Of a DNA stretch of 64,000 nucleotides, positions 9,947-64,000 are shown piece by piece. Made by a program: the position numbers and the translations under genes. Numbering within the stretch: position 1 is the first letter of the stretch; each line of letters begins with the position of its first letter. The notes below the pieces were generated by a model, which saw nothing but the letters and a program-made list of their open reading frames with translations, was not told the DNA's origin and searched no databases. Source of the DNA: a phage. Where the stretch lies: the NCBI GenBank assembly GCA_024686575.1, contig GCA_024686575.1_4863.1; one strand, written 5' to 3'.

Positions 9947-10013
9947 ACAAAAAAAAAGAAAAAGAAATAAGGTTTACCTCTCCCTTCGGGGAGAGGTACC
10001 TTTTCTTTTTTAA
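9947..10013. terminator. bidirectional rho-independent terminator
   Basis: Stem TACCTCTCCC/GGGAGAGGTA with TTCG loop, A-run upstream and T-run downstream; sits between convergent genes. Confidence 0.8.
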
Positions 10014-12386: not shown

Positions 12387-14165
12387 TTAGCGGCCGATTT
12401 TAGCAATGTCTTCTTCGGTCGGTCTGATGTACGGGTCCAGTTTAGGATTCCGCATCATTACCAAACTTGGGTTGGTCTTCATGTACGGGTTGAGGATGTT
12501 TGCCTTAAACGGTGCCGACTTAGGAATATAGTAGACGTTACCGCATTCCAGATGCGACGCGGATGCGTGCTTAGTACGGTCGTTCAAGTTAACGGTCTTG
12601 CCTCCTTTCTTCGAACGCTTAGCATCGGTTTCGGTTTGACCGATGGCGTGCGTAGACACTGCCAATACCATTGATTCTGTAGAGGCATTGAAGAAACTGA
12701 TACCGCCGTTGCTCGTAATGGTGCGCATCACCAGATTGAGCACGATCTGTTTGTTCAGTGCGTCTCGAATAGACTTCGCCGCTGTCTCTGGAGTCCGATG
12801 TTCCAACTGCCCCAGCTTCCAACGTATTTTCGAGATCGTTGTGGTAAAGCCACGTTGACCCAACAGTAGGTAATCGGTTACCGTGAGACGTTTTCCGTAC
12901 ATAGACGGAATATCATCTTGCTTGGTAAGTCGAGTGCGTACCATCAGCTGCGTGGTATACCAGAGGAAATCAAACATATCCAAATCATCAGGGATGGACG
13001 GATCGTTTGCCATCAGCTCACCACGGAAGGTGCTGTTGACATAGCGTTCACATTCCTGGAAGTGGCTGTCCATACTGCGACTCAGTTCGATATCCGAAGG
13101 CTTCAGTCCGCGAATACTGCGGCCCAACACTTCACGCCAAGACGCTGCAGAGTTGAGGTTTGCAATATCTTCGTCCATTGCCATTTCATTAATCTGTGTA
13201 AACAGCCCCGGTAATGTTGGCGCACGACCGTTCTTACTGTTCTGTTTACCTGCGTAGTAGTGCGCTGCTTTGAAGAATGCGGCAGTCGCTACCAGCAACA
13301 GATGTTCGTTTTGATCCCAACGCCCTGCATCGGTGTTAGGCATATCTTCACGTTTAACCAACAGCACGTACTGGATGGTCTTCGCGAGTTGTGGCTCACC
13401 GGATTGAATCACCACATACTTCGTTAAGTCCACATCACGTACTTTAATCGCTGGCCAAATCGCCACATCAACGCCCGCATAACGCTTCACGGCTTGTTTA
13501 AAGCCATAACGCCCAAAGAGCCAATACATCAGTGGCTTCTCATCTGTGTCGTGTCCAATCTGTCCAGTGGAGACAAACAGATTCGATGTACCCGGCAAGA
13601 ACAGCTGCTCAGGGCGACCATTCACCAGAATCTTCGTTGGTTTCTTACAGAACTTGATAGACACCTTGCGAGTGAAGTCAAAGTTAATAAAGATACCGCC
13701 GTGCTCACGACATATACCAGGTTGATGGATTACAGGTGCTACGTGGTACGTTGTACCATAGTAGTTCATTAAGCCGCCACGACGAATAAACGGCAGGCTC
13801 ATTGGTCGTTGCACCGGGCGAGGATCACCTGGAACTCGGAACGAGGCCATTACCATATACGTGTCAGTGGATGAGATGTTAATAATTGACCGGCCACGAT
13901 TATTTCGTGAATTGTTATCCGACTTCGATAACTTAAAGATAAAAGCTTCAAACGGCGACATTTGGCGACAACCTAATACCGTTAACCCTTCTGGTAATTT
14001 CGGGTTATCGATTTCATCATACGTCAACTCACGACGTAGAATGGTTGCCACACGATCATGTATCCCATCTTTAGCTTGTGTGTACCCAACTCCTTCTGCA
14101 ATTGCACGATTAAAAGGCACTATTTCGCCTGCCTCTTTAATCTTCCTAATCGCATCTTTAAACAC
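12387..14165 (-). CDS. hypothetical protein
   Basis: 592 aa ORF; no recognisable motif by eye. Confidence 0.7.
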   Translation of the reverse strand: MFKDAIRKIKEAGEIVPFNRAIAEGVGYTQAKDGIHDRVATILRRELTYDEIDNPKLPEGLTVLGCRQMSPFEAFIFKLSKSDNNSRNNRGRSIINISSTDTYMVMASFRVPGDPRPVQRPMSLPFIRRGGLMNYYGTTYHVAPVIHQPGICREHGGIFINFDFTRKVSIKFCKKPTKILVNGRPEQLFLPGTSNLFVSTGQIGHDTDEKPLMYWLFGRYGFKQAVKRYAGVDVAIWPAIKVRDVDLTKYVVIQSGEPQLAKTIQYVLLVKREDMPNTDAGRWDQNEHLLLVATAAFFKAAHYYAGKQNSKNGRAPTLPGLFTQINEMAMDEDIANLNSAASWREVLGRSIRGLKPSDIELSRSMDSHFQECERYVNSTFRGELMANDPSIPDDLDMFDFLWYTTQLMVRTRLTKQDDIPSMYGKRLTVTDYLLLGQRGFTTTISKIRWKLGQLEHRTPETAAKSIRDALNKQIVLNLVMRTITSNGGISFFNASTESMVLAVSTHAIGQTETDAKRSKKGGKTVNLNDRTKHASASHLECGNVYYIPKSAPFKANILNPYMKTNPSLVMMRNPKLDPYIRPTEEDIAKIGR

Positions 14166-14176
14166 ACCGGCCTCCC

Positions 14177-15181
14177 TCAGAGAATCATCCCAACGAGTGC
14201 TACCCCTGCAGCCAAATACGCGGGAATGGATTTCAAGAACTCCGAGCTATCTTTTCGCTGATAAGCTCGGGACTCGTATTGGTCTTTACGAACATCGGAA
14301 CGCAACTTAAGCTCATTCGTCTGGATTGCGTTAAGGGTGTTAATCCTCTCCTTCTCCAGCGCCAGATTATTAAGTTGCGTACGATAATCGAGGTCTTGCC
14401 GATTCTTTTTCTCATCGAGATCTTGCAACTTGGCCTGATACGTGGCTTCCAGCTTCGCACGAACATCTCGCAACTCTGGAATGTTATCGAGCCACCGATA
14501 ACGCCTCGCTTCATCTTCAGATGCAAACGCCCGGAACGGGGACATCGGGTCATCGAAAGCGTACATTATCATCTTACCCCCTTCGACACACTCCGCACCA
14601 CCGATTACCATGTAAATACCCTCGTCGTAATACTTCGATCGAATCGGTTCGACTTCCAACATCGTTGTATAGAACCTCAGCCACTTTAAAGGTGCTGGGT
14701 CTTCGTACTTCTGCACAACTACCACGCCCAAGGCAAATTCTTTACGATCCCCTCCTGGCTTACCAATAACCTCAGAATCGAGTTTTACTGGTTGAGTAGA
14801 GAAAGCCATTCCTAGCTTCTTCAACACCACCAAGTCGCCTCGCATTAACGCACCGATATCATCAACTACATACATCAGCGTTGTTTCGCCGTTCGTAGTT
14901 AATTCCTTACATATCTGCGCATACTGCTTTGGCGAATGTGCGTCGCGCAAACCAGATAGGTTAGCACCGTTCGCAAACACCGTATAGGTCACGTAAATCA
15001 CAATCCCAAATTCCGCCGCTGTGGTGGACGACGGGGCTAAAACAAAATGCCCGCCACTGAGTTCAGTGACGTAAATGGGAAACCCGGTATTATTTTCGTA
15101 CGTGATAGTCTTCGACACGGCACCACGGTGCATGGGCCGCTGGGTTAGCGTTGGCTGAACGTCTAAATCATAACGGTTCAT
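14177..15181 (-). CDS. hypothetical coiled-coil protein with C-terminal hydrophobic anchor
   Basis: Track ORF begins at a TTG (15205); first ATG at 15181 (MNRYDL...); C-terminal region rich in heptad-like K/E/L/Q repeats, ending in AAGVALVGMIL. Confidence 0.6.
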   Translation of the reverse strand: MNRYDLDVQPTLTQRPMHRGAVSKTITYENNTGFPIYVTELSGGHFVLAPSSTTAAEFGIVIYVTYTVFANGANLSGLRDAHSPKQYAQICKELTTNGETTLMYVVDDIGALMRGDLVVLKKLGMAFSTQPVKLDSEVIGKPGGDRKEFALGVVVVQKYEDPAPLKWLRFYTTMLEVEPIRSKYYDEGIYMVIGGAECVEGGKMIMYAFDDPMSPFRAFASEDEARRYRWLDNIPELRDVRAKLEATYQAKLQDLDEKKNRQDLDYRTQLNNLALEKERINTLNAIQTNELKLRSDVRKDQYESRAYQRKDSSEFLKSIPAYLAAGVALVGMIL

Positions 15182-15220
15182 TGAGCATCCCAGTAATAAT
15201 ACCAAAAGAATTATTCACGT

Positions 15221-15235
15221 AGATAATATCTATCT
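15221..15235 (-). promoter_or_regulatory. conserved motif 2 (plus AGATAATATCTATCT; inverted repeat AGATA-N5-TATCT)
   Basis: Exact 15-mer present four times in the window; here about 45 nt upstream of the ATG at 15181. Confidence 0.5.
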
Positions 15236-15286
15236 CAGATTACTTTGGGCACGGGTTCATACCCAGTGCCCGTAACGTAAAAAACT

Positions 15287-15985
15287 TTAGGGTATTAGGC
15301 GTTGGGCTATTTCGCGGAGTTGGTCGCGGGTTAAATCAGCCAACTTCTGGTCGCCGAAGCCCAACTTCAGACCCAGCTCGTACCCAGCTTGCGGATACGT
15401 GTTCGTGTTTGCTACTGAGAGGAGTGCATCGGCTATCTTTACCATCGTTAACTCGAGAGACGCATACGGGGCGGGGATCGGCTGATTCACGATTTGGTAA
15501 TTATAACGCACTGCGGCGTTATCGTAGTCAAACTCCATCCTTCTGCCGAGAACGTTAAACGACTCCGCAGAATAACTACCAAGTGGGTGATTGGCTTTTT
15601 CCCACAAATCTTTCCGTTCAGTAAACCCAGTCGCGAAGTTCTGACGTATGGTGTCGAATATTTGCGTTGCCTGGCTAGGGTGTATATTTTTCAGCTCATT
15701 GTAGTCGTAGTCGGCGATGGAATATAGAGTGAACACAACACCGTTTATATTTAACTGCGGATAATCCATCCGCAGACTGTCATCACCTTGTAAATGAAGT
15801 TCCCACATCCTTACCCACTGCAATATCGCGCTTACCGCATCGTGACTGAGATAAAAATTAGTAGGTTCTTCAGGATTTTCACGGAAGGGAACAGAGCATT
15901 CCGATACAAAAAAGCCGGCTGCCATAAATCCTCTGCCGTCGAACATAGGCGCAACTAATCTTGATTTTTCTAAATTGATTACCAT
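15287..15985 (-). CDS. hypothetical protein
   Basis: 232 aa; AAGGAG Shine-Dalgarno 8 nt upstream of ATG; preceded by the AGATAGATATTATCT motif and the terminator of the upstream gene. Confidence 0.7.
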   Translation of the reverse strand: MVINLEKSRLVAPMFDGRGFMAAGFFVSECSVPFRENPEEPTNFYLSHDAVSAILQWVRMWELHLQGDDSLRMDYPQLNINGVVFTLYSIADYDYNELKNIHPSQATQIFDTIRQNFATGFTERKDLWEKANHPLGSYSAESFNVLGRRMEFDYDNAAVRYNYQIVNQPIPAPYASLELTMVKIADALLSVANTNTYPQAGYELGLKLGFGDQKLADLTRDQLREIAQRLIP

Positions 15986-16025
15986 TACTGTCTCCTTAAG
16001 TTAAAACCGAACGACTCTCTCCCTA

Positions 16026-16040
16026 AGATAATATCTATCT
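16026..16040 (-). promoter_or_regulatory. conserved motif 2, copy downstream of the 766 aa gene terminator
   Basis: Exact 15-mer 41 nt upstream of the ATG at 15985, immediately after the terminator U-run. Confidence 0.5.
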
Positions 16041-16089
16041 ATAAATTTTTAGAAAAAAAGAAAAAGCTTACTCCCCGAAGGGAGTAAGC
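16041..16089 (-). terminator. rho-independent terminator after the highly expressed 766 aa gene
   Basis: Stem GCTTACTCC/GGAGTAAGC followed on minus strand by TTTTTCTTTTTTTC. Confidence 0.8.
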
Positions 16090-16120
16090 TAATCTTAGGC
16101 AACGTAATCCTTACGGATTA

Positions 16121-18421
16121 TTAGCCGCCAGCGCCTTCACCGCCAGTACCTGGCTGGGTAGCACCGCCGCCAACATCACCAGCATTACCACCGTCAGTAC
16201 CGCCGGTACCGTTGGAAGTAGTAGTGACGTTGAACGCCAGTTTCTCTTCCACGAACTTGGTGATACCTTTAATCCAGATCAGACCAGTGATCGGGCAGTG
16301 GCAGATGTGCGCGTTACGAGGCTGTACTGCCAGCTCTTTGCTGGTAGCGCCGTTACGCTGGATGTTGATGTTGGTTACCATGATCGGAGACCAGAAGTGG
16401 TTACCCCAGTTCAGAACACAGTAAGAACCATCATCAGCGGTTGGAACTTTCAGAACCCACTGCAGGCGGCGAGTCCAGCTGCCGTCAGCTTCGTTCTTCA
16501 CACGCCAGCGGTCATCGTTGGTGGTGATAACTTCGTACTCGTAGCGATCGCCCAGCAGACGCTGGTCACCCTGAACCAGCAGCAGCATTGCAGCAGTCGG
16601 TTCGTCAGTTGCGATAACAACTTTCGGCAGTGCGTTCGGGTCCGCAGTCAGCAGGCGCAGAGCCGGCATGAAGCGAGAGTCCTGGATAGCACGAGTTACC
16701 TGGTCACCGATACGCTGTACCAGACCCTGACGGGCGTTGATGAGCGCATCTTTGGTATCCAGAGACTGGATCACTTTGTCCACTTCGTAGTCGCTTTCGC
16801 TGTACCACGGAGCAACCCAGTGACGGCCCAGGCCGCGGATAGCAGGTTTGTCCCACGGAGTGATCATGGACGCAGCTGCGTTCTTAACCGCTTCGGTGTA
16901 AGACAGAGTCTGAGTGATAGCCAGCATTTCGTTACGGATGTTAACCGCAGAAACGAGGTCGTCCAGACGTTCGGTGTCGTCGTATTCAACGCCAACCGGA
17001 GATTTGGTCATGATCGGAGAACCGTACTGCAGTTTGTAGTTCTCTTGTTCCCAAATCGGGTCGAGCAGAAGGCCCTGGGTTCTCCGGTTCTCGTTGGTAC
17101 GAGTACCGTCGAAGCGCCAGCCCAGCAGCTCCAGTTTCAGGTTGTCGATGATGACTTTGCCGGTGCCGCTTTCGATATCAACAGCAGTACCAGTTGCGTC
17201 GTACAGACCTTCGATTTCCAGAGACGGTGCAGTCACGTCAACACGACCAGAGAACTGACCATTGGTGAACAGAGACATGCTGATGTTCATGGAATAACGA
17301 ATGGTGTAATCGTTCTGTGCCAGAGCGGCCAGTGCCGGGATTTCAGCACCTTTCCAGTCCAGAGACTTGGCGTTCAGGGAGAACACAGTGCGACGGAACT
17401 GCAGGACCAGCTCACGGCCATCACCTTCAGGAGGACGCTGGAAGGTAGCGAACTGCATGTCGCGTACGTTCAGTTTGATCAGCGCACCATCTTTCGCTTC
17501 TTCGGCCGGCTTACGCACAGACAGCAGCAGGCTACCCAGCGCTGCACCCGGTGCGATTTCGTCGGTTTCATCGTAACCTTCCTGCACGATACCCGGATGG
17601 GCAGACAGCTGGAACAGGTTCAGACGACGCTCAGAGAAGCTCAGGTAGTTGGTCGGATACGCCGGCACACGACCCAGCTGAACGTTTTCGTTTTCGATGA
17701 TGTCTTCGGATACGAAGAACTTCGCGTTCTCACCGGTTTCCATCACGTAAGGTACGATACGGATAGCATCGTCCTGCAGGACTTTGTGGTTAGACAGCGC
17801 GTTATGCAGCGGCTGACGGTTGTCTTCAACCACGTCTTTGGTCAGCAGGGCGTTCAGGATACCACGAGTTACAGTAGTAACTTTGGTACGAACGGTGATC
17901 CCGACGTCGTTGGTGTCCACAGTGATGGTCGGGAACAGGGTTTCTGCAAACTTGGATTGAGTTTCCAGAGCACGCACGTTCAGCGTCCAGGTCAGACCCA
18001 GGTTTTTGTCCAGGTCTTTGTTGGTGTAGTATTCGGTTGCGACCAGCGGAGTTTTACCGTAGTCAGCAGCCAGGGATGCTGCACCAGAAATAGCGATCGG
18101 CATATAGCTGGCGTATTCCGGCTTCGCGCTCTCAGCAGCAACACGGGTCATGAAGTCATCTTCGTGACCGGCAGCAGCCAGAATCATCGCAGAAGCAACC
18201 TGAGCAGCGTGGCTCATGGTTTTGCCAGGGTTTACAGCTTCGTAGTGCTGCTGAGCAGTGTCACGCAGGTTGGTGAAGCCGGCAGCATTTTTACGTACAG
18301 ATTCGCCAACGGCTACGGTTTGCCATACGTCATTAGCGGAAGAGCCTGCCTTGGCAGCAGCGACCAGAGCATTGCCCTGCTGAACCAGCTGGTCCAGACT
18401 AGCGATACGGGTATCTTTCAT
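16121..18421 (-). CDS. highly expressed structural protein, candidate major capsid protein
   Basis: 766 aa; strong preference for GGT/CTG/CGT/AAC/ACC codons unlike most neighbours; strong terminator directly downstream; Gly-rich C-terminal tail. Capsid role is a guess from size and expression. Confidence 0.75.
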   Translation of the reverse strand: MKDTRIASLDQLVQQGNALVAAAKAGSSANDVWQTVAVGESVRKNAAGFTNLRDTAQQHYEAVNPGKTMSHAAQVASAMILAAAGHEDDFMTRVAAESAKPEYASYMPIAISGAASLAADYGKTPLVATEYYTNKDLDKNLGLTWTLNVRALETQSKFAETLFPTITVDTNDVGITVRTKVTTVTRGILNALLTKDVVEDNRQPLHNALSNHKVLQDDAIRIVPYVMETGENAKFFVSEDIIENENVQLGRVPAYPTNYLSFSERRLNLFQLSAHPGIVQEGYDETDEIAPGAALGSLLLSVRKPAEEAKDGALIKLNVRDMQFATFQRPPEGDGRELVLQFRRTVFSLNAKSLDWKGAEIPALAALAQNDYTIRYSMNISMSLFTNGQFSGRVDVTAPSLEIEGLYDATGTAVDIESGTGKVIIDNLKLELLGWRFDGTRTNENRRTQGLLLDPIWEQENYKLQYGSPIMTKSPVGVEYDDTERLDDLVSAVNIRNEMLAITQTLSYTEAVKNAAASMITPWDKPAIRGLGRHWVAPWYSESDYEVDKVIQSLDTKDALINARQGLVQRIGDQVTRAIQDSRFMPALRLLTADPNALPKVVIATDEPTAAMLLLVQGDQRLLGDRYEYEVITTNDDRWRVKNEADGSWTRRLQWVLKVPTADDGSYCVLNWGNHFWSPIMVTNINIQRNGATSKELAVQPRNAHICHCPITGLIWIKGITKFVEEKLAFNVTTTSNGTGGTDGGNAGDVGGGATQPGTGGEGAGG

Positions 18422-18433
18422 TTCAAGTTTACC

Positions 18434-18958
18434 TTATTTAGATAAATGACATGCGTACAACTGCGTCAGCACTTCGTGCGCAGCAAACTGCGTCGACGTA
18501 CTGAACGTATCATCCACGACACGAGTCTTGGGACGCATATATTTAAAAAGTTCTGCGCAGAACATCTTTTTCGCAGCGTGGTCTTCACTTAAAGAAAAAC
18601 CCGGTCCGGATTTAGCTTCTGCAAAAGACGCCACAACAACATCGCCACGTTGTGAGAACACCCAACGTAAACGACCGTCGAATGATTCCCCATATAAATC
18701 AGCAAGGGTTTCATTCGTACCTTTCTCAACCAGGTTTAAGACCTGGTCATAATAAAGAGTCGGAAGTGCAGGTGGTGCCATAATCGATTTATAAATCGAA
18801 ATAGGGTCACTCACTGGCAGTATGATGGAACTAAAGCCCGACGAGCAGTCATATAACCAGTTAAAGAAGCTTGCTTGGAGTTCCTCCAACTTTTTAACGC
18901 CAGCCCCTTTATCTATGTTAGATTGAACTTCCCACGGTGGACTAAAACGAATTTGCAT
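18434..18958 (-). CDS. hypothetical protein
   Basis: Track ORF 18434-19012; internal ATG at 18958 avoids a 40-nt divergent overlap with the plus gene at 18973; stop lies 12 nt upstream of the 766 aa gene start. Confidence 0.5.
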   Translation of the reverse strand: MQIRFSPPWEVQSNIDKGAGVKKLEELQASFFNWLYDCSSGFSSIILPVSDPISIYKSIMAPPALPTLYYDQVLNLVEKGTNETLADLYGESFDGRLRWVFSQRGDVVVASFAEAKSGPGFSLSEDHAAKKMFCAELFKYMRPKTRVVDDTFSTSTQFAAHEVLTQLYACHLSK

Positions 18959-18972
18959 TTTAAGGATGCTCC

Positions 18973-20535
18973 ATGAATAGTAAAATGATGTTGATAACCG
19001 CCTTAGCCGCACTGTATACAGAATCTATGCTGACGGACCCTAGCAAGGATCATGATGTCATAAGAAAAGTTCTGATGCAGATCAAGCTTCCGGAATATGC
19101 GGAAGATGGCGAAGAGCGCTTTGCACTCATCGAGATCAAGGACATTATCACATCTATCATAGACGGCGGCATGGAATACGACCACGCGAGCGTTATGAAG
19201 CGCTTGAAGCTGGCCACCACTCAAGTACGTCCTCTATACGATACGATTACCAAATTCCTCGAAGACGATTTGCCCGAGGAAGAAGACAAACGTACCGAGC
19301 ATCTTAATCGACAACTGTCTCAATATTATTTCCAATTACGTCAATGTTTACAGAGCGTCGAACTCAAAACAAAAATGGGTCGCGCGTTCGGAGCATTGAA
19401 TGGAACTGAGACACGTGTTGATCTGAACACCGCAGTGCTCGAACTCAAAGAGGCGTTATCTACGTTCGGTGAACGCTCTCATAATAAGATTCCATCATTG
19501 GTCGGTGAGCTGGTTACAGATAATCGTGCTCCGTTTGTTAAAGTGTTCGACTCGATTAACAAGAAAGCTGCAGGTAATGGTTTGCAGACGGGCTGGAAAG
19601 CCATTAACCAAATGCTCGGTTGTAACAAAGGGATTACCGAAGAACTGTGGCTAATGCCAGCGTTACCTTTTAACTGTAAGTCTTTGTTCAGTCTCTTGCT
19701 GAGCCTATCGATTCCTATCTTCAACACGCCTGAGAAAGTAATGGCGGATGTGAAGGGCACACTGCAACCAATTATTCTTGACTTGAGTTTAGAAAACGAA
19801 CTCGACGTTAACTTAGCTTACGGCTATCAAGCTCTGTACGGTCATTTTGAAGGACAAGTTCCACAGATGACCATTTCACAGGATGCAACCGCTGAAGAGA
19901 AGTTAGCACACACAACAGCAATGTCTGATTACCTCTGTGGTAAGATTCGCGCAAACGGTTGGGACTACGTTTTCCAAAAGCACACCAACTCTGATTTTAA
20001 AGTGCACTACATCAACGACCTTATTCTCGACTTACGTCGTCGCGGTTATCATGTTGTTGGCATTCGCGCAGACTACTTAGGCACAATCAGCAAAGCAGGA
20101 CACGGCAACGGTATTGCCGGGAGTGATATCAAAGAAATTTATCGTATTGCTCGTAACATTCAAGTGGTGCGCAACCGTGGGTTCTTAATTGCCCCACACC
20201 AGATTTCCCCAGAAGGTAAGCGCTTAAAAGCGTTAGACCCGGTAGGCTTCTGTAAGAACTTACCTGGTCGTGGTCTTTACGATAGTTGTTCGAGCCTTGA
20301 TAACGAGGCCGATGGTGAAATGTATTTTAACAAGCGTGTGGTCAACGGCCATAGCTTCTTAGAAGTTCAACGCGGTAAACACCGCACCATTATCGATACT
20401 AAAGAATCTTATCACTACACAGTGATACCTTTCCAGGATGTAGGCATCCTGCCTTGGGATTGTGATAAAGAAGAAACCGTAACAGCGTCGTCTATCAACT
20501 TCTTCACCGGTGGAATGGGTGATGATTTGTTCTAA
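18973..20535 (+). CDS. hypothetical protein
   Basis: 520 aa ORF; AAGGA Shine-Dalgarno 7 nt before ATG; hairpin after stop. Confidence 0.7.
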   Translation: MNSKMMLITALAALYTESMLTDPSKDHDVIRKVLMQIKLPEYAEDGEERFALIEIKDIITSIIDGGMEYDHASVMKRLKLATTQVRPLYDTITKFLEDDLPEEEDKRTEHLNRQLSQYYFQLRQCLQSVELKTKMGRAFGALNGTETRVDLNTAVLELKEALSTFGERSHNKIPSLVGELVTDNRAPFVKVFDSINKKAAGNGLQTGWKAINQMLGCNKGITEELWLMPALPFNCKSLFSLLLSLSIPIFNTPEKVMADVKGTLQPIILDLSLENELDVNLAYGYQALYGHFEGQVPQMTISQDATAEEKLAHTTAMSDYLCGKIRANGWDYVFQKHTNSDFKVHYINDLILDLRRRGYHVVGIRADYLGTISKAGHGNGIAGSDIKEIYRIARNIQVVRNRGFLIAPHQISPEGKRLKALDPVGFCKNLPGRGLYDSCSSLDNEADGEMYFNKRVVNGHSFLEVQRGKHRTIIDTKESYHYTVIPFQDVGILPWDCDKEETVTASSINFFTGGMGDDLF

Positions 20536-20543
20536 CGAACACT

Positions 20544-20561
20544 GGGGAGCTTAGGCTCCCC
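20544..20561 (+). terminator. hairpin after plus gene (weak terminator candidate)
   Basis: Stem GGGGAGC/GCTCCCC with TTAG loop 9 nt after the stop of 18973-20535; no clear U-run. Confidence 0.3.
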
Positions 20562-20851
20562 TACGGGCAGTTTATGCGTCCTGCCGAGATCAAAAAAAAT
20601 ACGACGAACTATTTATATGCGTGGAATTACCCGAGTGCTAGAACACTCGGGTATAATTATTCCAGGCAAATATTCCTGTTATCTCTTGTTGAGTATTATC
20701 TCACCTCCTAGTCCTTTAATGGTACGGGTGGAAGTCTGCGGTTGGCGGGTAACCTCTTGCAGACGTTGTTGAAAAGCGACTTGTTTCAGCTGTTGCTGAC
20801 GCAGTTGTTGCATAAAGGTATTCATGTTAACCTCTAGGTGGATGTGAATAA

Positions 20852-20890
20852 GCTCTCTCCTTCGGGAGAGAGCACCTTTTATTTTCTTTT
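20852..20890 (+). terminator. rho-independent terminator (plus strand)
   Basis: Stem GCTCTCTCC/GGAGAGAGC with TTCG loop followed by CCTTTTATTTTCTTTT. Confidence 0.65.
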
Positions 20891-20932
20891 CGGAAAATAA
20901 ATATAAAGCCCTCTTACCCGAAGGTAAGAGGG
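20880..20932 (-). terminator. rho-independent terminator (minus strand)
   Basis: Stem CCCTCTTACC/GGTAAGAGGG, UUCG loop in minus-strand RNA, T-rich run on minus strand; directly downstream of gene 20939-21799. Confidence 0.7.
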
Positions 20933-20938
20933 GTACTA

Positions 20939-21799
20939 CTACGGTTTATAATCAACTTCGTTGATCTCACCGCAAGCCGGACAAGCAATGTTCATTGTCT
21001 GCGAAGTGTAGCGATGGGTTCTCGGTACTGTAGCGACATGGTTGCGGTTACAGCCGGAACACGTCCAACCGACCACTGGTGCCTTCGATTGTTTCGGGGC
21101 AGGAGTGTCTTCTTTTAACAATGCGACTACCGCGTGAAATTTACGAAGTTCTGCGTTAACATGCGCTTCCCAGTCGGCGTCCAAACGCGCCGTGAACCAA
21201 CGTTGAATCTTCTGGCCAAGGCCGTCTTGATTTTCTTCTTCATGGGACATCACAAACTTGAGATTTGCGCGACCCCACTGCACAACGTTCTCTACTTTAA
21301 TCCCGTCTACGGTGTCGCTGATTGGCGTATAGTTAAAAGTTGGATAGGTGAGATAACAAGCTTCAGCTGTTGCAAAGACCGTATTGCCTTCAAACAGCGC
21401 CATGGCCTCATCGCCCTTAGCATCCTTCTGTGCGGCTTCCAATCGTGGGCAATGGAAACCTTCAAGTTGCTGGATTTTGGTCGTTAGCGCATTGATACCC
21501 TGCAGCACAGCGATACGCTTTTTGCTGTCTGTAATGGTTGCCATTACCTTGCACAACGCGCGCGAGATAGCGCTATACATTGACGTTTTGCGGTTTTCAT
21601 CGAGGAAACGCTCTTGCTGCTCCAGGTCGTAAGAAGACAGGCCGTAGCTCTGCCCTTCGACCAACACGACGTAAGTACGACGTTTGTCGCGGTCCAGCTG
21701 GACAATGGCCGCATCGGTTAACGGATCGCTAGCCAATACTTCGTGGTCGGGAGGTAGGGGGAAATCTGAACTTTTGATGAAATCAGTAATGCTGTACAT
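20939..21799 (-). CDS. hypothetical protein with C-terminal Cys4 zinc ribbon
   Basis: 286 aa; C-terminus WTCSGCNRNH...NIACPACGEI (CxxC-N19-CxxC); terminator immediately downstream. Confidence 0.7.
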   Translation of the reverse strand: MYSITDFIKSSDFPLPPDHEVLASDPLTDAAIVQLDRDKRRTYVVLVEGQSYGLSSYDLEQQERFLDENRKTSMYSAISRALCKVMATITDSKKRIAVLQGINALTTKIQQLEGFHCPRLEAAQKDAKGDEAMALFEGNTVFATAEACYLTYPTFNYTPISDTVDGIKVENVVQWGRANLKFVMSHEEENQDGLGQKIQRWFTARLDADWEAHVNAELRKFHAVVALLKEDTPAPKQSKAPVVGWTCSGCNRNHVATVPRTHRYTSQTMNIACPACGEINEVDYKP

Positions 21800-21801
21800 T
21801 T

Positions 21802-22218
21802 TTAGTCCTTAAGAGAGTTAATAAAGTCATCTAAACTAATATCACGGAATGGGAAGTAAACACCTTCAAGCGGGATCGTGTAGTGTTCACTAATGGCACG
21901 TTGCCAATCCAGAACAGTTGCGGGGTAGTTCACAACCTCAAAGTTAGGATGCGTAATTGGCGGAATTGCGTTGTAAACATAGCCGTTGATATTTTTCGAT
22001 GGGAACGCTGCACGGAACTTCGGCTCCATGTAGAACATTTCCTCTTTTACTTCCTGGCCTTCCCAGAAACGATAACCGCCCTTACCGTCAGGAATATAAA
22101 TCGCCTTGTCACGGGGTATAGGGGAATCCTTGGATAGCGGAACAAATCGTCCGTACTGGTCAAGAACCATCCAGTCGGTGTCATTCTTTAAATACTTTTG
22201 GAGCTTCTCATTAATCAT
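21802..22218 (-). CDS. hypothetical protein
   Basis: 138 aa ORF; AAGGAA Shine-Dalgarno upstream of ATG at 22218. Confidence 0.65.
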   Translation of the reverse strand: MINEKLQKYLKNDTDWMVLDQYGRFVPLSKDSPIPRDKAIYIPDGKGGYRFWEGQEVKEEMFYMEPKFRAAFPSKNINGYVYNAIPPITHPNFEVVNYPATVLDWQRAISEHYTIPLEGVYFPFRDISLDDFINSLKD

Positions 22219-22228
22219 TTTTCACGTT

Positions 22229-22842: not shown

Positions 22843-22868
22843 TCACCTAGGTAATATATATCTGAAAT
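22843..22868 (-). promoter_or_regulatory. conserved promoter-like motif 1 (minus-strand reading contains TATATATTACCTAGGTGA)
   Basis: 26-nt exact repeat TCACCTAGGTAATATATATCTGAAAT shared with 31344-31369; lies between a terminator and the first gene of a small-gene operon. Confidence 0.55.
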
Positions 22869-23025: not shown

Positions 23026-23032
23026 CACACAT

Positions 23033-31343: not shown

Positions 31344-31369
31344 CTCACCTAGGTAATATATATCTGAAA
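31344..31369 (-). promoter_or_regulatory. conserved promoter-like motif 1, second copy
   Basis: Identical 26-mer, with partial conservation of the next 15 nt; located after the paralog-1 terminator and about 50 nt upstream of the ATG at 31302. Confidence 0.55.
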
Positions 31370-55340: not shown

Positions 55341-57446
55341 TTACAACTCAATTACCACAGCGGCTCCTAGGTCATCGTACAACGATGCCGGGATTTTGTA
55401 CTCGGTATAAAAACCAACGCGATCGATATTCCCCTGCTGTCCTTCAAACAACAACATCGGAATTGCCGAGCGCAAACTAATGAGCGTGTTGTGATCGACA
55501 AACCGTTTCCCTGTAGCGTTAGTAGAATCCTCACTGTCAAATCCTACTGCCGGGAACGGATTGGTTGGCGACTCTACACGAGATATCGCCAACATAATCG
55601 CAATGTGCGTCATCGGTATACCACTCAGCTTACGCTGGATATACTTAAACGTGTCCATCAACGCATAAGTACACTGTTTCTCTGTAGCACCACCCATTTC
55701 AACCAACGTCACCGGTTTCACACGACCTTGTTTCTTGTTCAGCTTCACAGTCGAGGCTGTGTTGATGATTTCCACAATGTCTTCGTTCTTATCGGCAGCA
55801 ATCGAACGGAGCTTGGTTTCTAAGCCGGCTACGAACTCCGCCATCGATTCAGAACGGTTGGTGTAGACCAGGACCGGGTGTTTCGGGTTCCATCCTTTTA
55901 AGGGGATTTCTACCGTCTTCTTCTCGATACGAATGTTCGCTCGTTGTTTCAAGAAGTAGTGCAGGAACGGTTTAGAGAAGTTCCCACAAACACCCATTCG
56001 CACATCGATAGAATCCGCAGCGATTATCTGCCCATCTTCTAAACGACGTTGGAAAGTTAAGTCGGTGATTTCTGGTAATGCCGTTTCATCAATTGCATCG
56101 AGATCTTCATGATACGCAATCTGGCTCAGCTCCGAATAAACTTTGTCGGTAACAACCAACTCGTATTCTGACCAATTCCCACGCTGTGGTTTTGGCAGCA
56201 AGCACAACCCTTTCAGAGAGTTATGTTTGTATTCGGTCATATACTCACGCATACGTGGGGTGAGTACCAGGTTGAGCAGATAACGCAAGAAGTCAAGGTG
56301 CTTGGTAGAGAGAATTCCCTGTGTACCCTTTTCCGAGATGGACGTGGATGCCAGGTGACCTGGTGACGTACCTTCAGAGAGGTTATAAATCAAATCCCCC
56401 ATACAGGTCGCACAGATGGACTGATTCGCCATCTCTTTACAGGTCATGGCACTACGGAAGACCAGCGGTTTGCCAACCAGGTCTGCGTATCCGCCTTTCT
56501 CAAATCGCAACCACGGACCATTATCGCCTTCTAAACGATAACGCATCCCCACCATCGCTTTATAGGCACGCTCATCCAGCTGCGTATCCTTAAACGTGTA
56601 GCGGTGTGCGTGTGTTGTACCGCAGTCGTCGTACGTGAAATACATCAGTACGTTTGCTGCCAGCTGCAGTTTACGTGAGGCGTATTCTGCTTCGGCAATC
56701 TTGTCAGTGTTGTACAGGTGGGAACGTGAAGTTGCACCAGATTCTTTCAAACGCGAAATAACCGAATGCATTCCGGTAAAGAAGCCTTCCCACACCTGAT
56801 TGGTGTATACACGTGAGTCAATTTCTGACGTTTTGCCGCGCACGAACGCTTGCAGTACCTGGTTCATCTTCACGGTACCGTCCAGTACCGACATTACGAC
56901 TGGGTTATACCGCAGCGCAGGGTCTTTGAAGATTTTCTCGATAAGCTTATACGCTTCTTCAACCATATCCTGACCATCTTCATCGTAGCCAGTAGGATAC
57001 TGCACTTCCCACTGACGGATGAGTTCGAAGTTCGGGTGGTCGTAGATCTCCATCATCGTATCAAAGTCGATTGTCGTACAATAGGACAGCAAGTTCTTCA
57101 CTGTCATGTTGAACGCATCGGCGTAGACATGTTGACTCAGGATATAACGCGTTTCAGCAAGGTCGACACCTGCTTTACGGGCCAGTACCGCTGCTTCCGA
57201 CATAAAGTCCAGATGCAGGTCATCTGTTGCTACCTGACCTGGACGATACGCCATGGTCGATGGAGTGGGCACCTGCGGATACAGACGCGACACACCCCAA
57301 TACGGCCAGCTGAGTTTGATGTGGCGACTAGACATTTCCAACGACTTACCATCGTCGAAAGTCACGTAATAACGCCCGCGTAGTTTCCACACCTGATCAG
57401 AGTTAAGCATACGCAAATCACGTACGTGTACAGAACGACCCGCCAT
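55341..57446 (-). CDS. multisubunit RNA polymerase beta-prime-like subunit, C-terminal part
   Basis: 701 aa; ASTSISEKGTQGILSTKH matches the beta-prime trigger-loop signature AAQSIGEPGTQLTMRTFH; preceded by a Cys cluster (C-x8-C-x2-C) as in the C-terminal Zn site of beta-prime. Confidence 0.7.
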   Translation of the reverse strand: MAGRSVHVRDLRMLNSDQVWKLRGRYYVTFDDGKSLEMSSRHIKLSWPYWGVSRLYPQVPTPSTMAYRPGQVATDDLHLDFMSEAAVLARKAGVDLAETRYILSQHVYADAFNMTVKNLLSYCTTIDFDTMMEIYDHPNFELIRQWEVQYPTGYDEDGQDMVEEAYKLIEKIFKDPALRYNPVVMSVLDGTVKMNQVLQAFVRGKTSEIDSRVYTNQVWEGFFTGMHSVISRLKESGATSRSHLYNTDKIAEAEYASRKLQLAANVLMYFTYDDCGTTHAHRYTFKDTQLDERAYKAMVGMRYRLEGDNGPWLRFEKGGYADLVGKPLVFRSAMTCKEMANQSICATCMGDLIYNLSEGTSPGHLASTSISEKGTQGILSTKHLDFLRYLLNLVLTPRMREYMTEYKHNSLKGLCLLPKPQRGNWSEYELVVTDKVYSELSQIAYHEDLDAIDETALPEITDLTFQRRLEDGQIIAADSIDVRMGVCGNFSKPFLHYFLKQRANIRIEKKTVEIPLKGWNPKHPVLVYTNRSESMAEFVAGLETKLRSIAADKNEDIVEIINTASTVKLNKKQGRVKPVTLVEMGGATEKQCTYALMDTFKYIQRKLSGIPMTHIAIMLAISRVESPTNPFPAVGFDSEDSTNATGKRFVDHNTLISLRSAIPMLLFEGQQGNIDRVGFYTEYKIPASLYDDLGAAVVIEL

Positions 57447-59683
57447 TATTTATCCTCCCGAATTGGACGCACTAATTCAAAACCTTCACAGCGATGGATG
57501 TTACGTATCATCCTGTCAATCTGCGAATCACCCATTGGCAGTTTCTTACGATCGACCAGCACCCCTGGATTGGTTGGTGTTGGCGAGTTATACAGCCCCG
57601 TTACGATCGCACGGTGTACCGCAGGGTTATTAGCGCGGTCATGAGTTTCGGGGAAGTTGCCCGGACCAAAGCCGTCGGTAAGACGCTGCTCGGAAGGACC
57701 ACCCCACTTCAACCCTTTCAGGTTAATCGGATATGAACCACGTCCTTGGTTGGATGCATCAATACAACCCAAATAGTTCGTGTACATCGACGAGATACTG
57801 GAGAACTCACGACCGGTTTTATCCAGGCGCAGAGTCTCTACCATGCCGACGTAAAACTGGTTCTTCGTCCACTCTTTCTCACCCTGATAGTTAGTAATCA
57901 GTAGCTTAGACTTGCGTGGTGCATACTCGCCTAGAGCACGGCAGATTTCTACCTGGGTAGCATTCAATTCGTGGGGAAGCCAGATACGAATCGTGAAGTC
58001 GTAAATCTCTTTAAAGAGTTCCAGACGTGACCCAGTATCCGGGTGACTGGCATTGAGATAGAATGTCCAGCGTGGGTTATAGCGATCGATATAGTCCATC
58101 AGGATTTCCCAGGCTTCATCAACCTGGTTGGCGGCAAGTAAAGGTTTCAACCGCATCTTCAACTGCTCGGATGCAGCAGACCAATACATGTGGAACAGCG
58201 CAGCATAAGTCGAACGACGAATTACGGCGTTCATGGAACGAATGACATGCACACGTTCTCCGAACTCGTTAATCGGCATTTCTTCATCAGGCCGCACTGC
58301 GCCCACGATACCTTTTGTACCTGAACGGTCGGTGATTTTCGATGAGACGGTAACTGGGATTGGATAACGTACCACGATGCGTATCGTGTAACTACCAATT
58401 GGGTCCCAGAGACCACGCTGAACCGGCTGCGCCAGTTTGTTTAACACGTTCTTATCAGCAGAACGGTTATACTCGCCTTTACGCATGGCTTCATCGTATT
58501 CACGACCAATCTCTTCACGGAAGTCGTTATAGACTTCATACGTCTCAGAACAGAACGCCTTGTCAAGAATCTCAAACGCTTTCGGTGACCAGACGATATT
58601 CTTGTCCTTGGACATCGCAAAATAGAACCGTACGATATCATTGTAAAAACGTTTCAAAGCGTTCGCGTAGTGATCTAACTCGCGTTTGTTCTCTTCGGTA
58701 CATGCGATATTGTTAACACCACGATCGCATTTGGTTTCGTCCCGCCATACCTGAATATCAACGACACGAGAACCGGTACGTTCCATCTTTTCAAAGTCGC
58801 CAGCCAGTCGCGCTTTGTAATGCTCAGGGTCGGCATCAACATACTCACAACGGTCGAAGTGCGGAGAGACATGTTGTGTTTCACCTACGTGCGAGTCAAT
58901 GGCTGCCCATAGCTTATCGAAACGGCGCGCGGCAATAACCAACCCATCATCACGAATTGCCTGTCCTTTATTGGGCAGGTACTGTGGTCGACGAACGCCA
59001 TCAATACCCGTTGTCCCATACGTATCAAGCAGGTACTCGTCGTCGCGCAAGGTAAAGTCGATTGCACGCAAACCATAAGCGTGCATCGCTTTCGCTGCAG
59101 TTTCGGAGATGGTGTACGAGTCCTCGATAATGTCCGGGTGCGACATCGTCACGGTGTGCAGGTTGACCCCATCGACAAACTCACCGTCTTTCTGTGCCGG
59201 CAGCACGGTAAGCATTTCATCTTTTTCCAGGTGCTGCGTCTGCCCGCGCAGCAACGCCTGAAGTTTCCCAGTAGCCTCTTTCTTAGACGAGAAAATGTTA
59301 TCGTGGTTGGTGTAATACTTAATATCGATTACATCAATCATCACTTTGCGCTGGTTGGTTAAATCTGCGCGCGTGAAGAAGATAACATGTTGGAGCGGTT
59401 CGTGATCCCCTTCACGACCATAGCGTGCAAAAACAGCTGCACGAGTAACACCTTCTTTGGTTGTGTAACTGCACACGGTACCACTGTCTTCCACGATATC
59501 GTTAAAACAATAATCGTGGTAGTTCACATCAGCGCCGGTAAAATGGATAGTCGGATCTGGATTGTCCAGTGGTACCGCCGACTTCATATGTCCACCCACC
59601 ATTGAGGCACGTGCCCCAGATACGCCAGTGATATTCACCTCACGGTCAGCAACGCTTGACATGAGTTCGACTGGTGTTTTCAT
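57446..59683 (-). CDS. multisubunit RNA polymerase beta-like subunit, C-terminal part
   Basis: 745 aa; ITDRSGTKGIVGAVRPDEEMP matches the beta signature [20 protein letters not shown]; C-terminal GGPSEQRLTDGFG resembles GGQRFGEMEVWA; stop overlaps the start of the beta-prime-like gene. Confidence 0.7.
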   Translation of the reverse strand: MKTPVELMSSVADREVNITGVSGARASMVGGHMKSAVPLDNPDPTIHFTGADVNYHDYCFNDIVEDSGTVCSYTTKEGVTRAAVFARYGREGDHEPLQHVIFFTRADLTNQRKVMIDVIDIKYYTNHDNIFSSKKEATGKLQALLRGQTQHLEKDEMLTVLPAQKDGEFVDGVNLHTVTMSHPDIIEDSYTISETAAKAMHAYGLRAIDFTLRDDEYLLDTYGTTGIDGVRRPQYLPNKGQAIRDDGLVIAARRFDKLWAAIDSHVGETQHVSPHFDRCEYVDADPEHYKARLAGDFEKMERTGSRVVDIQVWRDETKCDRGVNNIACTEENKRELDHYANALKRFYNDIVRFYFAMSKDKNIVWSPKAFEILDKAFCSETYEVYNDFREEIGREYDEAMRKGEYNRSADKNVLNKLAQPVQRGLWDPIGSYTIRIVVRYPIPVTVSSKITDRSGTKGIVGAVRPDEEMPINEFGERVHVIRSMNAVIRRSTYAALFHMYWSAASEQLKMRLKPLLAANQVDEAWEILMDYIDRYNPRWTFYLNASHPDTGSRLELFKEIYDFTIRIWLPHELNATQVEICRALGEYAPRKSKLLITNYQGEKEWTKNQFYVGMVETLRLDKTGREFSSISSMYTNYLGCIDASNQGRGSYPINLKGLKWGGPSEQRLTDGFGPGNFPETHDRANNPAVHRAIVTGLYNSPTPTNPGVLVDRKKLPMGDSQIDRMIRNIHRCEGFELVRPIREDK

Positions 59684-59713: not shown

Positions 59714-59728
59714 AGATAATATCTATCT
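59714..59728. promoter_or_regulatory. conserved motif 2 in divergent intergenic region
   Basis: Exact 15-mer between the RNAP beta-like gene start (59683) and the plus gene start (59750); could serve either or both. Confidence 0.5.
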
Positions 59729-61490: not shown

Positions 61491-63191
61491 TTAATCAATG
61501 AGACCGTTGCCGAGTCCGTTTCCGCCTATACCGCCTAAGCCACCACCCAGGTCAAGACCTCCAAGAGGATCTAAGCCACCTGTGTTAGTTGGAATGTTAG
61601 ATAGCATTCGACCCCGGCCTTGGCCTTTCTCGAATTCTGTATAACCTTCTTCCACGGCTTTCAGCAGCGTTGCAGTGTTCTGTGCCAGCTCACCAACGTA
61701 TTTGAGATCGGTGGTGTTGCCGGTATGGAGACGGAATTGCATAAACGACGCGTAGGTGTAATATTCCAGCGGTTCGTCGTCGACACGGATTTCAATACGA
61801 GTAACGGTCCCCAACAATGCGGTGACCAGCATGTGACAGCGAATATGGTTATGTTTAGTAACCTGAACCATCGCTTCTTTCATGTTCTGCAAGAAACGAC
61901 GACCTAATGCAGCAGGTAACTGATGATGTGTGATGCTGCTGACTGAGTTAGGAATAACTTCCAACGTAGGCTCTATCATGATATCCGTGTTACGGTTATC
62001 AAAGACAAAGCTCACTTCGCCAATCAGGTTACGTGACATAATCGGCCCGATAGACATAGCCAGATCATACGCAACTAGACTACCCTGAGTAGAAAAGCCG
62101 TTACGTCCAATCCAGTGGTCGGTTTGGTTAACCAGCCCTGCACCCAACCCACGGCGACTTGCCAGCGCCAGCGATTCACGGATACATTCATCCAACCGCA
62201 TTGGGTTGACAATCGCATTACGCAAATCAGCCAAACGGAACGTCGCCTTACTGGTTGCTTTCCAACCGCCAGATACATCAGACATCCCGTTCTGGAGTGC
62301 TTGACGCATCGCAGCAATCAGTTCGTGGTTGCTGTAGTTACGGATAACACCACGCTGCTTCAATTCAGATTCAACGCCGATGGAGTTATTACCTGCAAAG
62401 AAGCTTTCCACGCTACCGAGTTCGGTATCTACCCCAGAGCTTGCCAGATACGCATTACTGATTGCAGATACGTAGTTTTCCGGACGCTGGAGTTGGGATA
62501 CCATCAACTGTGGTGCAGAGCTACTGGTTGCGGATAGCACAGAGTCGCTCGTTGGAACGAACTTCTCACCGCTATTCATTTCAATACGTTTTACCATATC
62601 CGCTGCTTTCGCGATCGAAATGATATCTACCGTACTTTCTGTTTGACCTTCAACAGACAGCGCTTTCGATAAAACGTAGTTATCCAGTAGACGGAATGAG
62701 TCTGGGTTCAATGTTTTGCCGCCCAGGGCATCGTGTGTATACGTTGCCTGTAAGCCGTAGATGTCGTTAATGTACAACACCATATCGTCCGGCAGCAGGC
62801 TACCCAGGCTGGTTTCTGCCTGACTGGTATAACCGGAGACGATGTATTGCGTTTCCTGAGTGCGTGTTGCATTCAGAGGTTTAGCAATAAACACCGCCAC
62901 GAAGTTAAAGATACCGGTATCACGTGATTCCCATTGGAACTGTACAGGACGATTGTCATCATCGGACACGTTGATGAATGGACGCTCAAAACCGTTCTGG
63001 GTGCCATCGAAGCCCACGATGGCAGATAATGCTTCTTGATACTGCTGTGTTCCCACAGCTTTTTCCCCGCCCAGTTCAACCGCTGCTGCTAAGTCATCCA
63101 GTGCACCCGTCGATGCGTTAAAGCCGATGCGGCGACGAACTTGCTCTGGAACATCGTAGACCGGATACATCAGTAGATTTACAAGCTGCAT
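61491..63191 (-). CDS. hypothetical protein with Gly/Leu-rich C-terminal tail
   Basis: 566 aa; AAGGAG Shine-Dalgarno 9 nt upstream; C-terminus GGLDPLGGLDLGGGLGGIGGNGLGNGLID. Confidence 0.7.
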   Translation of the reverse strand: MQLVNLLMYPVYDVPEQVRRRIGFNASTGALDDLAAAVELGGEKAVGTQQYQEALSAIVGFDGTQNGFERPFINVSDDDNRPVQFQWESRDTGIFNFVAVFIAKPLNATRTQETQYIVSGYTSQAETSLGSLLPDDMVLYINDIYGLQATYTHDALGGKTLNPDSFRLLDNYVLSKALSVEGQTESTVDIISIAKAADMVKRIEMNSGEKFVPTSDSVLSATSSSAPQLMVSQLQRPENYVSAISNAYLASSGVDTELGSVESFFAGNNSIGVESELKQRGVIRNYSNHELIAAMRQALQNGMSDVSGGWKATSKATFRLADLRNAIVNPMRLDECIRESLALASRRGLGAGLVNQTDHWIGRNGFSTQGSLVAYDLAMSIGPIMSRNLIGEVSFVFDNRNTDIMIEPTLEVIPNSVSSITHHQLPAALGRRFLQNMKEAMVQVTKHNHIRCHMLVTALLGTVTRIEIRVDDEPLEYYTYASFMQFRLHTGNTTDLKYVGELAQNTATLLKAVEEGYTEFEKGQGRGRMLSNIPTNTGGLDPLGGLDLGGGLGGIGGNGLGNGLID

Positions 63192-63203: not shown

Positions 63204-64000
63204 TTAAGAATTAAACCATTCAACTTCTTCTAACTTGCGACGTGCATTCAACACCATAAACTCCGCCAGGCTATTGTGCAGTGACAAGTGAGGTATATAG
63301 TTTGGCTGATCCGTCTCACACTTCAGCAGCGCAGCTGCTTCTGGTGTAGCCCTGAGATGGAACAGATACGGGTTGATGTGATCCTTGTGTAACAAGGTCA
63401 GTGATTCCCGTGGTGTAGATTGCGGTTCGAGATTACGCGGGTTGCGATACTCCTGAAGATAATATCTATCTAAATCTGCTTTGAGTTCAGATCGAATTGG
63501 GTCGGCTGCATAACCGGCAGACATCTCAGAACGCACCATATTGCAACTTAACAGTTGCGCAACGTCATACATTCCATAATTGAGATAAGTTGCCTGTGCT
63601 AACGCCATGCCGTAGCGAAACGCTTCTGGTCCACATTCGGTATACGTCTTATAATGCGCGCTACGATGGAGTGCTAATGCGACTAACCATTCGTGGAGCG
63701 TATAGACAGGACCGTCGTGTGTTGCCAGTTGCGAATCAATCAATAACTTAACATCTGCTGGAGCGGCATTATCCAGGCGCATTGTTTTCAAGAAAGAGCG
63801 GTATTCTTTAAATACGTACTCGGTACGGACGTATTCTTTCATCTGGGCAGGAGAACGTGCCTGCACCAAATCCATGGCGTTTATCTTACCCTTTTCGCCA
63901 TTGAATATCACACTTTCTGGATGCGCTTTTAACAGCACCGGCTGGTTAGAGATTTTGTTTGCAAAACCTGTTTCAATCTCTTGTTTAACCAGAAAATACA
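63204..64000 (-). CDS. hypothetical protein, 5-prime partial (continues beyond window end)
   Basis: Track ORF starts at a GTG at 63938, but the frame stays open to the window end; contains an internal copy of the AGATAGATATTATCT motif. Confidence 0.55.
   Translation of the reverse strand, partial: YFLVKQEIETGFANKISNQPVLLKAHPESVIFNGEKGKINAMDLVQARSPAQMKEYVRTEYVFKEYRSFLKTMRLDNAAPADVKLLIDSQLATHDGPVYTLHEWLVALALHRSAHYKTYTECGPEAFRYGMALAQATYLNYGMYDVAQLLSCNMVRSEMSAGYAADPIRSELKADLDRYYLQEYRNPRNLEPQSTPRESLTLLHKDHINPYLFHLRATPEAAALLKCETDQPNYIPHLSLHNSLAEFMVLNARRKLEEVEWFNS
63457..63471 (-). promoter_or_regulatory. conserved motif 2, intragenic copy
   Basis: Exact 15-mer inside the coding sequence of 63204-64000 (encodes DRYYL), about 270 nt upstream of the next gene start at 63191. 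Confidence 0.35.

Follow-up and report, generated by a model that had tools for sequence, protein, structure and literature searches.

In a 64,000-nucleotide (nt) stretch of phage DNA (GenBank assembly GCA_024686575.1, contig GCA_024686575.1_4863.1; the whole stretch is referred to below as the window), the 15-mer AGATAATATCTATCT occurs in four exact plus-strand copies, at positions 15221, 16026, 59714 and 63457. Read on the minus strand, as AGATAGATATTATCT, it is very probably the core of the phage's own early promoter, used with the injected virion RNA polymerase (vRNAP), with three copies driving the operons of the non-virion RNA polymerase (nvRNAP) and the fourth being internal to a gene. 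This reading is based on the family of sites to which the 15-mer belongs, on the orientation, position and conservation of its members, on the identity of the genes downstream, and on the match to published promoter consensus sequences. The preliminary description of the window had listed the same four copies and considered their recurrence by chance negligible, and we observe complete agreement with it on both points, as no match was found in 100 dinucleotide-preserving shuffles.

The window is 98.6–99.1% identical to the Salmonella jumbo phage SEGD1, being the reverse complement of its 24.5–87.5 kb region, and ~99% identical to SPN3US over the stretch compared. Judged by its sequence, the phage is SPN3US-like and belongs to Seoulvirus among the phiKZ-like phages (Chimalliviridae). 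Long open reading frames (ORFs) of the window are nearly all located on the minus strand, and therefore the 15-mer is to be read as AGATAGATATTATCT. The strand used in the preliminary description was the non-functional one: all family sites are co-oriented with the minus-strand genes, and the informative reading is AGATAGATATTATCT followed by nnnn-GA. Gene names of the gpNNN type follow the SEGD1 numbering throughout.

With up to three mismatches allowed, AGATAATATCTATCT has seven matches in the window vs. 0.92 expected, and two of its relatives, at 22849 and 31351, are identical to each other and differ from it at two positions (AGGTAATATATATCT). The 40-nt flanks of the four exact copies are only 20–47% identical, that is, near random, and the copies therefore do not belong to a larger duplicated segment; together with the strict relation to gene starts, this also speaks against a dispersed repeat or the end of a mobile element. 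A k-mer enrichment analysis of the whole window mostly picked up coding repeats and terminator tails rather than the promoter family, which was detected via inspection of intergenic regions and with a weight matrix.

The complete SEGD1 genome was assembled, and a weight matrix built from near matches was scanned over both strands. Twenty-four sites were identified with scores of 6.7–46 (23 of them at 29 or higher and one at 6.7), the maximum score in 20 Markov-simulated genomes being 10.8. All 24 lie on the main coding strand, which carries 245 of the 308 ORFs, and are co-oriented with the downstream gene; the few matches on the opposite strand are 4-nt-offset echoes of the partial palindrome. 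The genome-wide positional analysis proposed in the preliminary description confirms the association with gene starts. By SEGD1 annotation, 22 of the 24 sites are intergenic, while non-coding DNA constitutes only ~7% of the genome (binomial probability <1e-17, our own arithmetic), and the 15-mers of the family end 30–98 nt from the start codon of a co-oriented downstream gene, in many cases closely following a terminator. The family has the consensus aaaaTTTC-AGATA(G/T)ATATTA(T/C)CT-nnGT-GA, with positions 7, 8, 10 and 12 invariant. Position 20, located 6 nt after ATATTAT, is G in 23 of 24 sites, and position 21 is A in 20 of 24. Six exact copies of the 15-mer are present in SEGD1, five of them in two gene clusters encoding four of the five nvRNAP subunits, and no member of the family precedes an annotated virion gene.

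Three of the window copies had been described as lying close to start codons, and this holds when genes of the minus strand are considered. Copy 1 (15221..15235, minus) ends 39 nt before the ATG of gp077, in an operon that runs on into gp078, and its predicted start base is G 15216. Copy 2 (16026..16040, minus; predicted start base G 16021) ends 40 nt before the ATG of gp076 and directly follows the terminator of the major capsid gene. Copy 3 (59714..59728, minus; predicted start base G 59709) ends 30 nt before the ATG of gp037, in a divergent gap shared with the small plus-strand gene gp036. Copy 4 (63457..63471, minus; predicted start base G 63452), on the contrary, has no start codon close downstream: it is embedded in the 3′ coding part of gp032, where it falls on the codons of L-D-R-Y-Y-L, 265 nt upstream of the start of the next gene, gp033/34. 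All four copies have G-A at motif positions 20–21.

That two of the three copies follow a hairpin or terminator is also confirmed, the two structures being of different kinds. Upstream of copy 2 lies a canonical intrinsic terminator of the major capsid gene (16065..16090, minus), with an 11-bp stem followed by TTTTTCTTTTT, so that the order of elements is the capsid-gene stop codon, the terminator, an A/T tract, the 15-mer, 40 nt containing an AGGAG ribosome-binding site, and the ATG of gp076. Between the stop codon of gp076 and copy 1 we observe a G+C-rich hairpin lacking a U-tract (15247..15271, minus). A hairpin, though differing in sequence, is also present at the equivalent position in Asesino, phiEaH2 and ChrisDB; the comparison suggests a conserved structural element, possibly a non-canonical terminator or a stabilizer of the 3′ end.

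Both neighborhoods have further features. SPN3US (72406–72737) lacks most of gp076 (window 15287–15985), retaining a 27-codon remnant ORF, and therefore gp076 is dispensable or variable within the species; two identical promoter copies are thus placed in tandem in SPN3US, ~190 nt apart. The plus-strand gene gp036 (59750–60073, 107 amino acids) is divergent from gp037, has its ATG 21 nt from copy 3 and is kept in every relative examined; read in reverse, toward gp036, the element of copy 3 lacks both the conserved start G and T10.

The preliminary description had suggested a comparison with promoters of phiKZ-like phages, and both the promoter idea and the phiKZ-like context proved right, as the element matches the published early consensus. 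According to reviews, every jumbo phage encoding its own RNA polymerases has an AT-rich conserved motif of ~10 nt centered near position –10 of early transcription starts, presumed to be read by vRNAP (PMC7598289). Early promoters have been predicted as TBYAWWWWWTTTCARRYAKATATTATYWAAGTGWA in N1M2 and BSHAWWWWWTTTYARRYAKATATTATYWWADTG in OBP, and the phiKZ core is TATATTAC (PMC7058600, Table 2). The SEGD1 consensus, derived independently of these motifs, agrees with those of OBP and N1M2 nearly position for position: the A/T tract, TTTC, A-R-R-Y-A-K, ATATTAT, Y, and AAGTG-A. N1M2 has 31 sites per genome compared to 24 in SEGD1, and in both phages the sites precede genes for RNA polymerase beta subunits and many genes of unassigned function. 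The hosts and genera differ (Pseudomonas and Klebsiella vs. Salmonella for Seoulvirus), and the OBP and N1M2 promoters are also predicted rather than mapped. In the SEGD1 family, unlike these two, positions 2–5 are GATA with few exceptions, and two clear-cut sub-variants (G6/T13 and T6/C13) are distinguished.

The similarity extends to phages with mapped promoters. The ATATTA(C/T) core is shared with phiKZ and 201phi2-1, and phiKZ early promoters also have the T-rich upstream stretch and the TTTGAGAT prefix in common with the SEGD1 family, but GATCTATATTAC where the window phage has GATAGATATTATCT. Moreover, synteny holds for the sites preceding the gp68 and gp71 homologues: phiKZ carries TTTGAGATCTATATTAC before gp68, TTTAAGATCTATATCAT before gp70.1/71, and TTTGAGATTTATATTAC before gp54, for which a primary transcription start site with the early motif has been reported (PMC8244752). 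The 5′ untranslated regions (UTRs) reported for phiKZ are 31–40 nt long (PMC8244752), compared to 26–36 nt predicted here, and 28–32 phiKZ sites are mapped experimentally, whereas those of the SEGD1 family are predicted. The mapped early promoter of AR9 is AAATATATATTAT-(6N)-G+1, and in phiKZ and phiR1-37 transcription also starts 6 nt downstream of the element (PMC5312081). AR9 thus shares with the window the ATATATTAT core, the 6-nt spacing to a conserved start G, and a strict sequence requirement; it differs in being distantly related and not nucleus-forming, in having a uracil-containing genome, and in the upstream part, which is AAAT rather than TTTCAGAT. In the literature reached, which did not cover the Lavysh 2016 survey, we found no paper spelling out this motif for SPN3US-like phages.

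The genes behind the sites include those of the nvRNAP. Directly behind copy 3 are gp037 and gp038 (55341..59683, minus), homologous to PHIKZ071-073 and PHIKZ074, that is, the beta/beta′-like nvRNAP subunits: gp037 matches PHIKZ071 of the solved phiKZ nvRNAP (7OGP chain C, 2e-29) as well as the AR9 nvRNAP, and gp038 matches PHIKZ074. The second gene behind copy 1, gp078 (12387..14165, minus), separated from gp077 by a gap of 11 nt, is homologous to another nvRNAP subunit, PHIKZ123 (7OGP chain E, 3e-20). The gene hosting copy 4, gp032 (3′ part at 63204..64000, minus; truncated by the end of the window), is homologous to the fifth, sigma-like subunit PHIKZ068, with an alignment of 444 amino acids at 2e-13 and the same gene order, and in SEGD1 it is itself preceded by another exact 15-mer copy. 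A homologue of PHIKZ055, encoded outside the window at SEGD1 17663–18885 by an unannotated ORF that appears frameshifted, is found behind two further family members. Hence all five nvRNAP subunit genes (homologues of PHIKZ055, 068, 071-073, 074 and 123) are located behind motif sites, while the vRNAP gene homologous to PHIKZ080 and the annotated virion genes are not. phiKZ expresses its nvRNAP genes early and its vRNAP genes in the middle or late phase (PMC4848604; PMC13282480), and by homology to phiKZ timing the genes behind the sites would be classified as early.

The remaining genes behind the window copies gave few clues. The first gene downstream of copy 4, gp033/34 (61491..63191, minus; 566 amino acids), belongs to PHROG 3141, with no function assigned, and has no detectable similarity to PHIKZ069. 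The search against PHROGs matched only families of unassigned function for the genes directly behind copies 1, 2 and 4; gp076, gp077, gp033/34 and gp035 had no match in PDB, and eight proteins had none in Pfam. The SEGD1 annotation splits gp033/34 in two, gp033 and gp034, while in both the window and SPN3US it is one 566-amino-acid ORF. A difference is also observed in the gene following the nvRNAP pair: a 1.1-kb stretch (window 53810–54917) inside a 933-amino-acid ORF (52550–55351) is replaced by ~70 nt in SEGD1, where gp039 is annotated with 568 amino acids, which is an indel or an assembly difference.

The sites are conserved well beyond Salmonella phages. In both gaps around gp076 the element is kept in MET_P1_082_240, SPN3US, Asesino and phiEaH2 (Erskinevirus) and ChrisDB (Machinavirus), although the intergenic DNA around it has diverged; the site between gp036 and gp037 is kept in SPAsTU, Asesino, ChrisDB, Wellington and CR5. 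In total, four other genera with Erwinia and Cronobacter phages (Erskinevirus, Machinavirus, Wellingtonvirus and Derbicusvirus) have sites at the same positions. The embedded copy 4 is retained in all relatives examined for the gp036/gp037 site. In a codon alignment of gp032 from five genomes (1,104 columns), the longest invariant run is GATAGATATTATC, of 13 nt, the next longest being 8, while only 10% of third codon positions elsewhere in this alignment are invariant. With CR5 included, no invariant run in the gene exceeds that of the promoter core, ATATTATC. Synonymous positions of the embedded copy are thus invariant in four genera, and its core ATATTATC in a fifth as well. In CR5 the residues DRYY are replaced by EIYY, and still the DNA, GGAAATATATTATCC-TCAG-G, resembles the sites of CR5 itself, AAATATATGTTATCG and ACATATATGTTATCT. 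These comparisons point to selection at the DNA level, and hence copy 4 probably works as an internal promoter of gp033/34 and gp035. The 3′ part of phiKZ gp68 contains no match to TATATTA or TATATCA, the nearest TATATTA being ~420 nt into the gene. The probable overlap of a promoter with protein-coding sequence in the gene of the sigma-like subunit is a small curiosity, and of all the observations only this copy, constrained at synonymous positions, is somewhat new.

Two sub-variants are distinguished in the family, one with G6/T13, represented by the exact 15-mer, and the other, sub-variant B, with T6/C13 followed by AGGT-GAG. The latter, AGATATATATTACCT-AGGT-GA, is found in the window at 22849..22863 (minus), 57 nt upstream of a 47-amino-acid gene and with a predicted transcript beginning with a 5′ hairpin, and at 31351..31365 (minus), where it follows a terminator and precedes gp057 by 48 nt; the predicted start bases are 22844 and 31346. 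The preliminary description had suggested, as an alternative to a dimeric factor, a promoter class distinct from another motif, called motif 1. We do not see a separate class, as the relatives at 22849 and 31351 have the same core, spacing and predicted start base, making the 15-mer one sub-variant of a single family. If motif 1 is the AGATATATATTACCT variant, then the two differ only as sub-variants, although the AGATATATATTACCT variant additionally has a 5′ hairpin and a UTR box. The hairpin begins exactly at the predicted start G in five of five sub-variant B sites, with stem sequences that differ between copies and are mutually compensating, compared to none of three 15-mer copies; likewise, the AATCGACYATTA box just before the ribosome-binding site accompanies sub-variant B and not the 15-mer copies. 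The sub-variants may differ in mRNA stability or translation, with the polymerase-recognition core being common.

Sub-variant B, AGATATATATTACCT-AGGT-GAG, forms part of a cassette of ~80 nt, consisting of the promoter, the 5′ hairpin at the predicted +1 and an AATCGAC(T/C)ATTA box before the ribosome-binding site. The box is found at window positions 22818, 31321 and 30510 (minus), with ~9 copies genome-wide, and before gp058, at 30510, it is present without the promoter.

The 15-mer has perfect 5-bp inverted arms, and the preliminary description had seen in them a hint of a dimeric factor. Such an operator, read as AGATA-N5-TATCT by a dimeric phage repressor or activator, would agree with the fact that at least four of the five arm pairs are kept in most family members, and the genome encodes at least one helix-turn-helix protein, SEGD1 gp104, itself behind a family member. 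Across the 24 sites, however, changes in one arm are not compensated in the other: pair 3/13 loses complementarity in eight sites (A-C in seven) and pair 2/14 in seven (G-T in five), a possible compensatory change being observed in a single case, while pair 1/15 in the relatives is A-T, G-C, G-T or A-C, roughly as predicted by independent variation. Complementarity is absent from the central pairs 6/10 and 7/9 in every site, and the invariant positions 7, 8, 10 and 12 all fall in the non-palindromic center; the flanks of the element are asymmetric, with TTTC upstream and GT-GA downstream. Moreover, the orientation relative to the gene is fixed in all 24 sites, a constraint not required of a symmetric operator, and the reverse reading scores below 32, compared to 29–46, and places A at the invariant T10. 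The uncompensated arm breaks, asymmetric flanks and fixed orientation therefore argue against recognition of the dyad by a dimer, and we consider such an operator very unlikely.

Two rival readings concern the polymerase. A host sigma-70 promoter, with TATTAT as the –10 element and the upstream A/T tract, read by the Salmonella RNA polymerase, would explain the AT-rich hexamer-like core: in the exact 15-mer T8-A9-T10-T11-A12-T13 falls at –12 to –7 of the predicted start and matches TATAAT at five of six positions, and some phiKZ-related phages are reported to depend partly on the host RNA polymerase (PMC5468394). Still, there is no –35 element, and a consensus scan of 14000–24000 yielded eight matches vs. 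11.1 in shuffles, none of them using the motif as –10. The bases flipped out by sigma-70, A-11 and T-7 (PMC7598289), are variable here, with position 9 being G in five and position 13 being C in seven of the 24 sites. Conservation extends well beyond the hexamer, spanning ~25 nt, and the same extended motif is present in phages of Pseudomonas, Klebsiella and Erwinia, so that a sigma-70 promoter seems highly improbable. Equally little weight is given to an nvRNAP promoter of the middle or late class, or one in continuous use, as opposed to an early vRNAP promoter. Continuously expressed genes are known in AR9 and phiR1-37 (PMC7598289), 201phi2-1 reads two nvRNAP genes from a middle promoter (PMC11512511), and the timing of the window sites is based on analogy. 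On the other hand, the first nvRNAP subunits cannot be products of nvRNAP transcription, yet the genes of all five are found behind the motif; the known nvRNAP promoters differ, with TATG at the start in phiKZ and AACA-6N-TA/G in AR9 (PMC7598289); and the motif fits the early consensus of related phages, with no annotated virion gene behind a family member.

For the early vRNAP promoter, the following scenario may be proposed. The injected five-subunit vRNAP, for which no sigma-like factor is known (PMC13282480), would bind the extended element at approximately –19 to –5, with TTTC and the A/T tract further upstream, and would start at the G located 6 nt after ATATTAT, that is, at the minus-strand bases predicted above for each copy, yielding leaders of 26–36 nt for the nvRNAP operons. 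Three copies, placed directly after upstream terminators or hairpins, would switch on the operons encoding the nvRNAP (gp037/gp038 and gp078), copy 4 would drive the genes behind it from inside gp032, and the nvRNAP would then take over middle and late transcription.

Several points weigh against this scenario. The literature reached gives no transcript 5′ ends, timing or biochemistry for SPN3US-like phages, so that vRNAP as the enzyme, early expression and the exact start base are assigned by analogy. One family member (site 173705) precedes a SEGD1 gene annotated as endolysin, for which an early function is not obvious. In 201phi2-1 not all nvRNAP genes are near an early promoter, and hence location before nvRNAP genes does not universally mark this promoter class (PMC11512511). 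Finally, the variant with T at position 13 places TATTAT where a bacterial –10 element would be, and some use by the host RNA polymerase may occur.

In addition, the SEGD1 scan revealed two divergent gaps outside the window, at 15418/15422 and 190345/190349, where the palindromic echo on the other strand also has G-A at positions 20–21. These echoes are located 31–35 nt before the minus-strand genes gp020 and gp224 if the starts of called ORFs are used, and 31–56 nt by annotated starts; from their sequence, both gaps may be bidirectional promoters. The SEGD1 annotation assigns gp021 and gp022 (within 15461–19100) to the minus strand, yet a long plus-strand ORF is observed there, along with a ribosome-binding site and two early-promoter sites. 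The ORF behind the tandem sites 15418/15511, at the position equivalent to that of phiKZ chimallin, was considered as a chimallin candidate, but this identity is not claimed, as the ORF has no match in PDB and no significant BLASTP match to PHIKZ054.

Two other motifs were observed in the window. TATGAC, resembling the phiKZ late promoter T-A-T-G(+1), is found shortly before several non-early genes (gaps 177–267, 23831–23873 and 28562–28638, minus strand), but its intergenic enrichment genome-wide is weak, only about two-fold (nine of 63 occurrences vs. 7% of non-coding DNA). AAAAAAAGAA (minus strand TTCTTTTTTT) occurs seven times vs. 0.06 expected from base composition, e.g., at 16055–16064, 9947–10009 and 46436–46484; where inspected, it represents the U-tract tails of minus-strand intrinsic terminators, several of which have a TTCGG loop in common.

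Early promoters have been predicted for every jumbo phage encoding RNA polymerases and mapped in phiKZ, AR9, phiR1-37 and 201phi2-1; thus, this kind of element is already known and the conceptual novelty is small. It is conceivable, albeit unlikely, that the exact 15-mer is a dedicated sub-class of early promoters for polymerase hand-over, its perfect dyad perhaps also being read by a factor that times nvRNAP synthesis or feeds back on it; if true, the 15-mer would be a regulatory node and not just one more early promoter. The value of the present analysis is in a testable promoter map, comprising 24 sites with predicted start bases and two sub-variants, for the SPN3US-like phages, a genetic model for giant phages.

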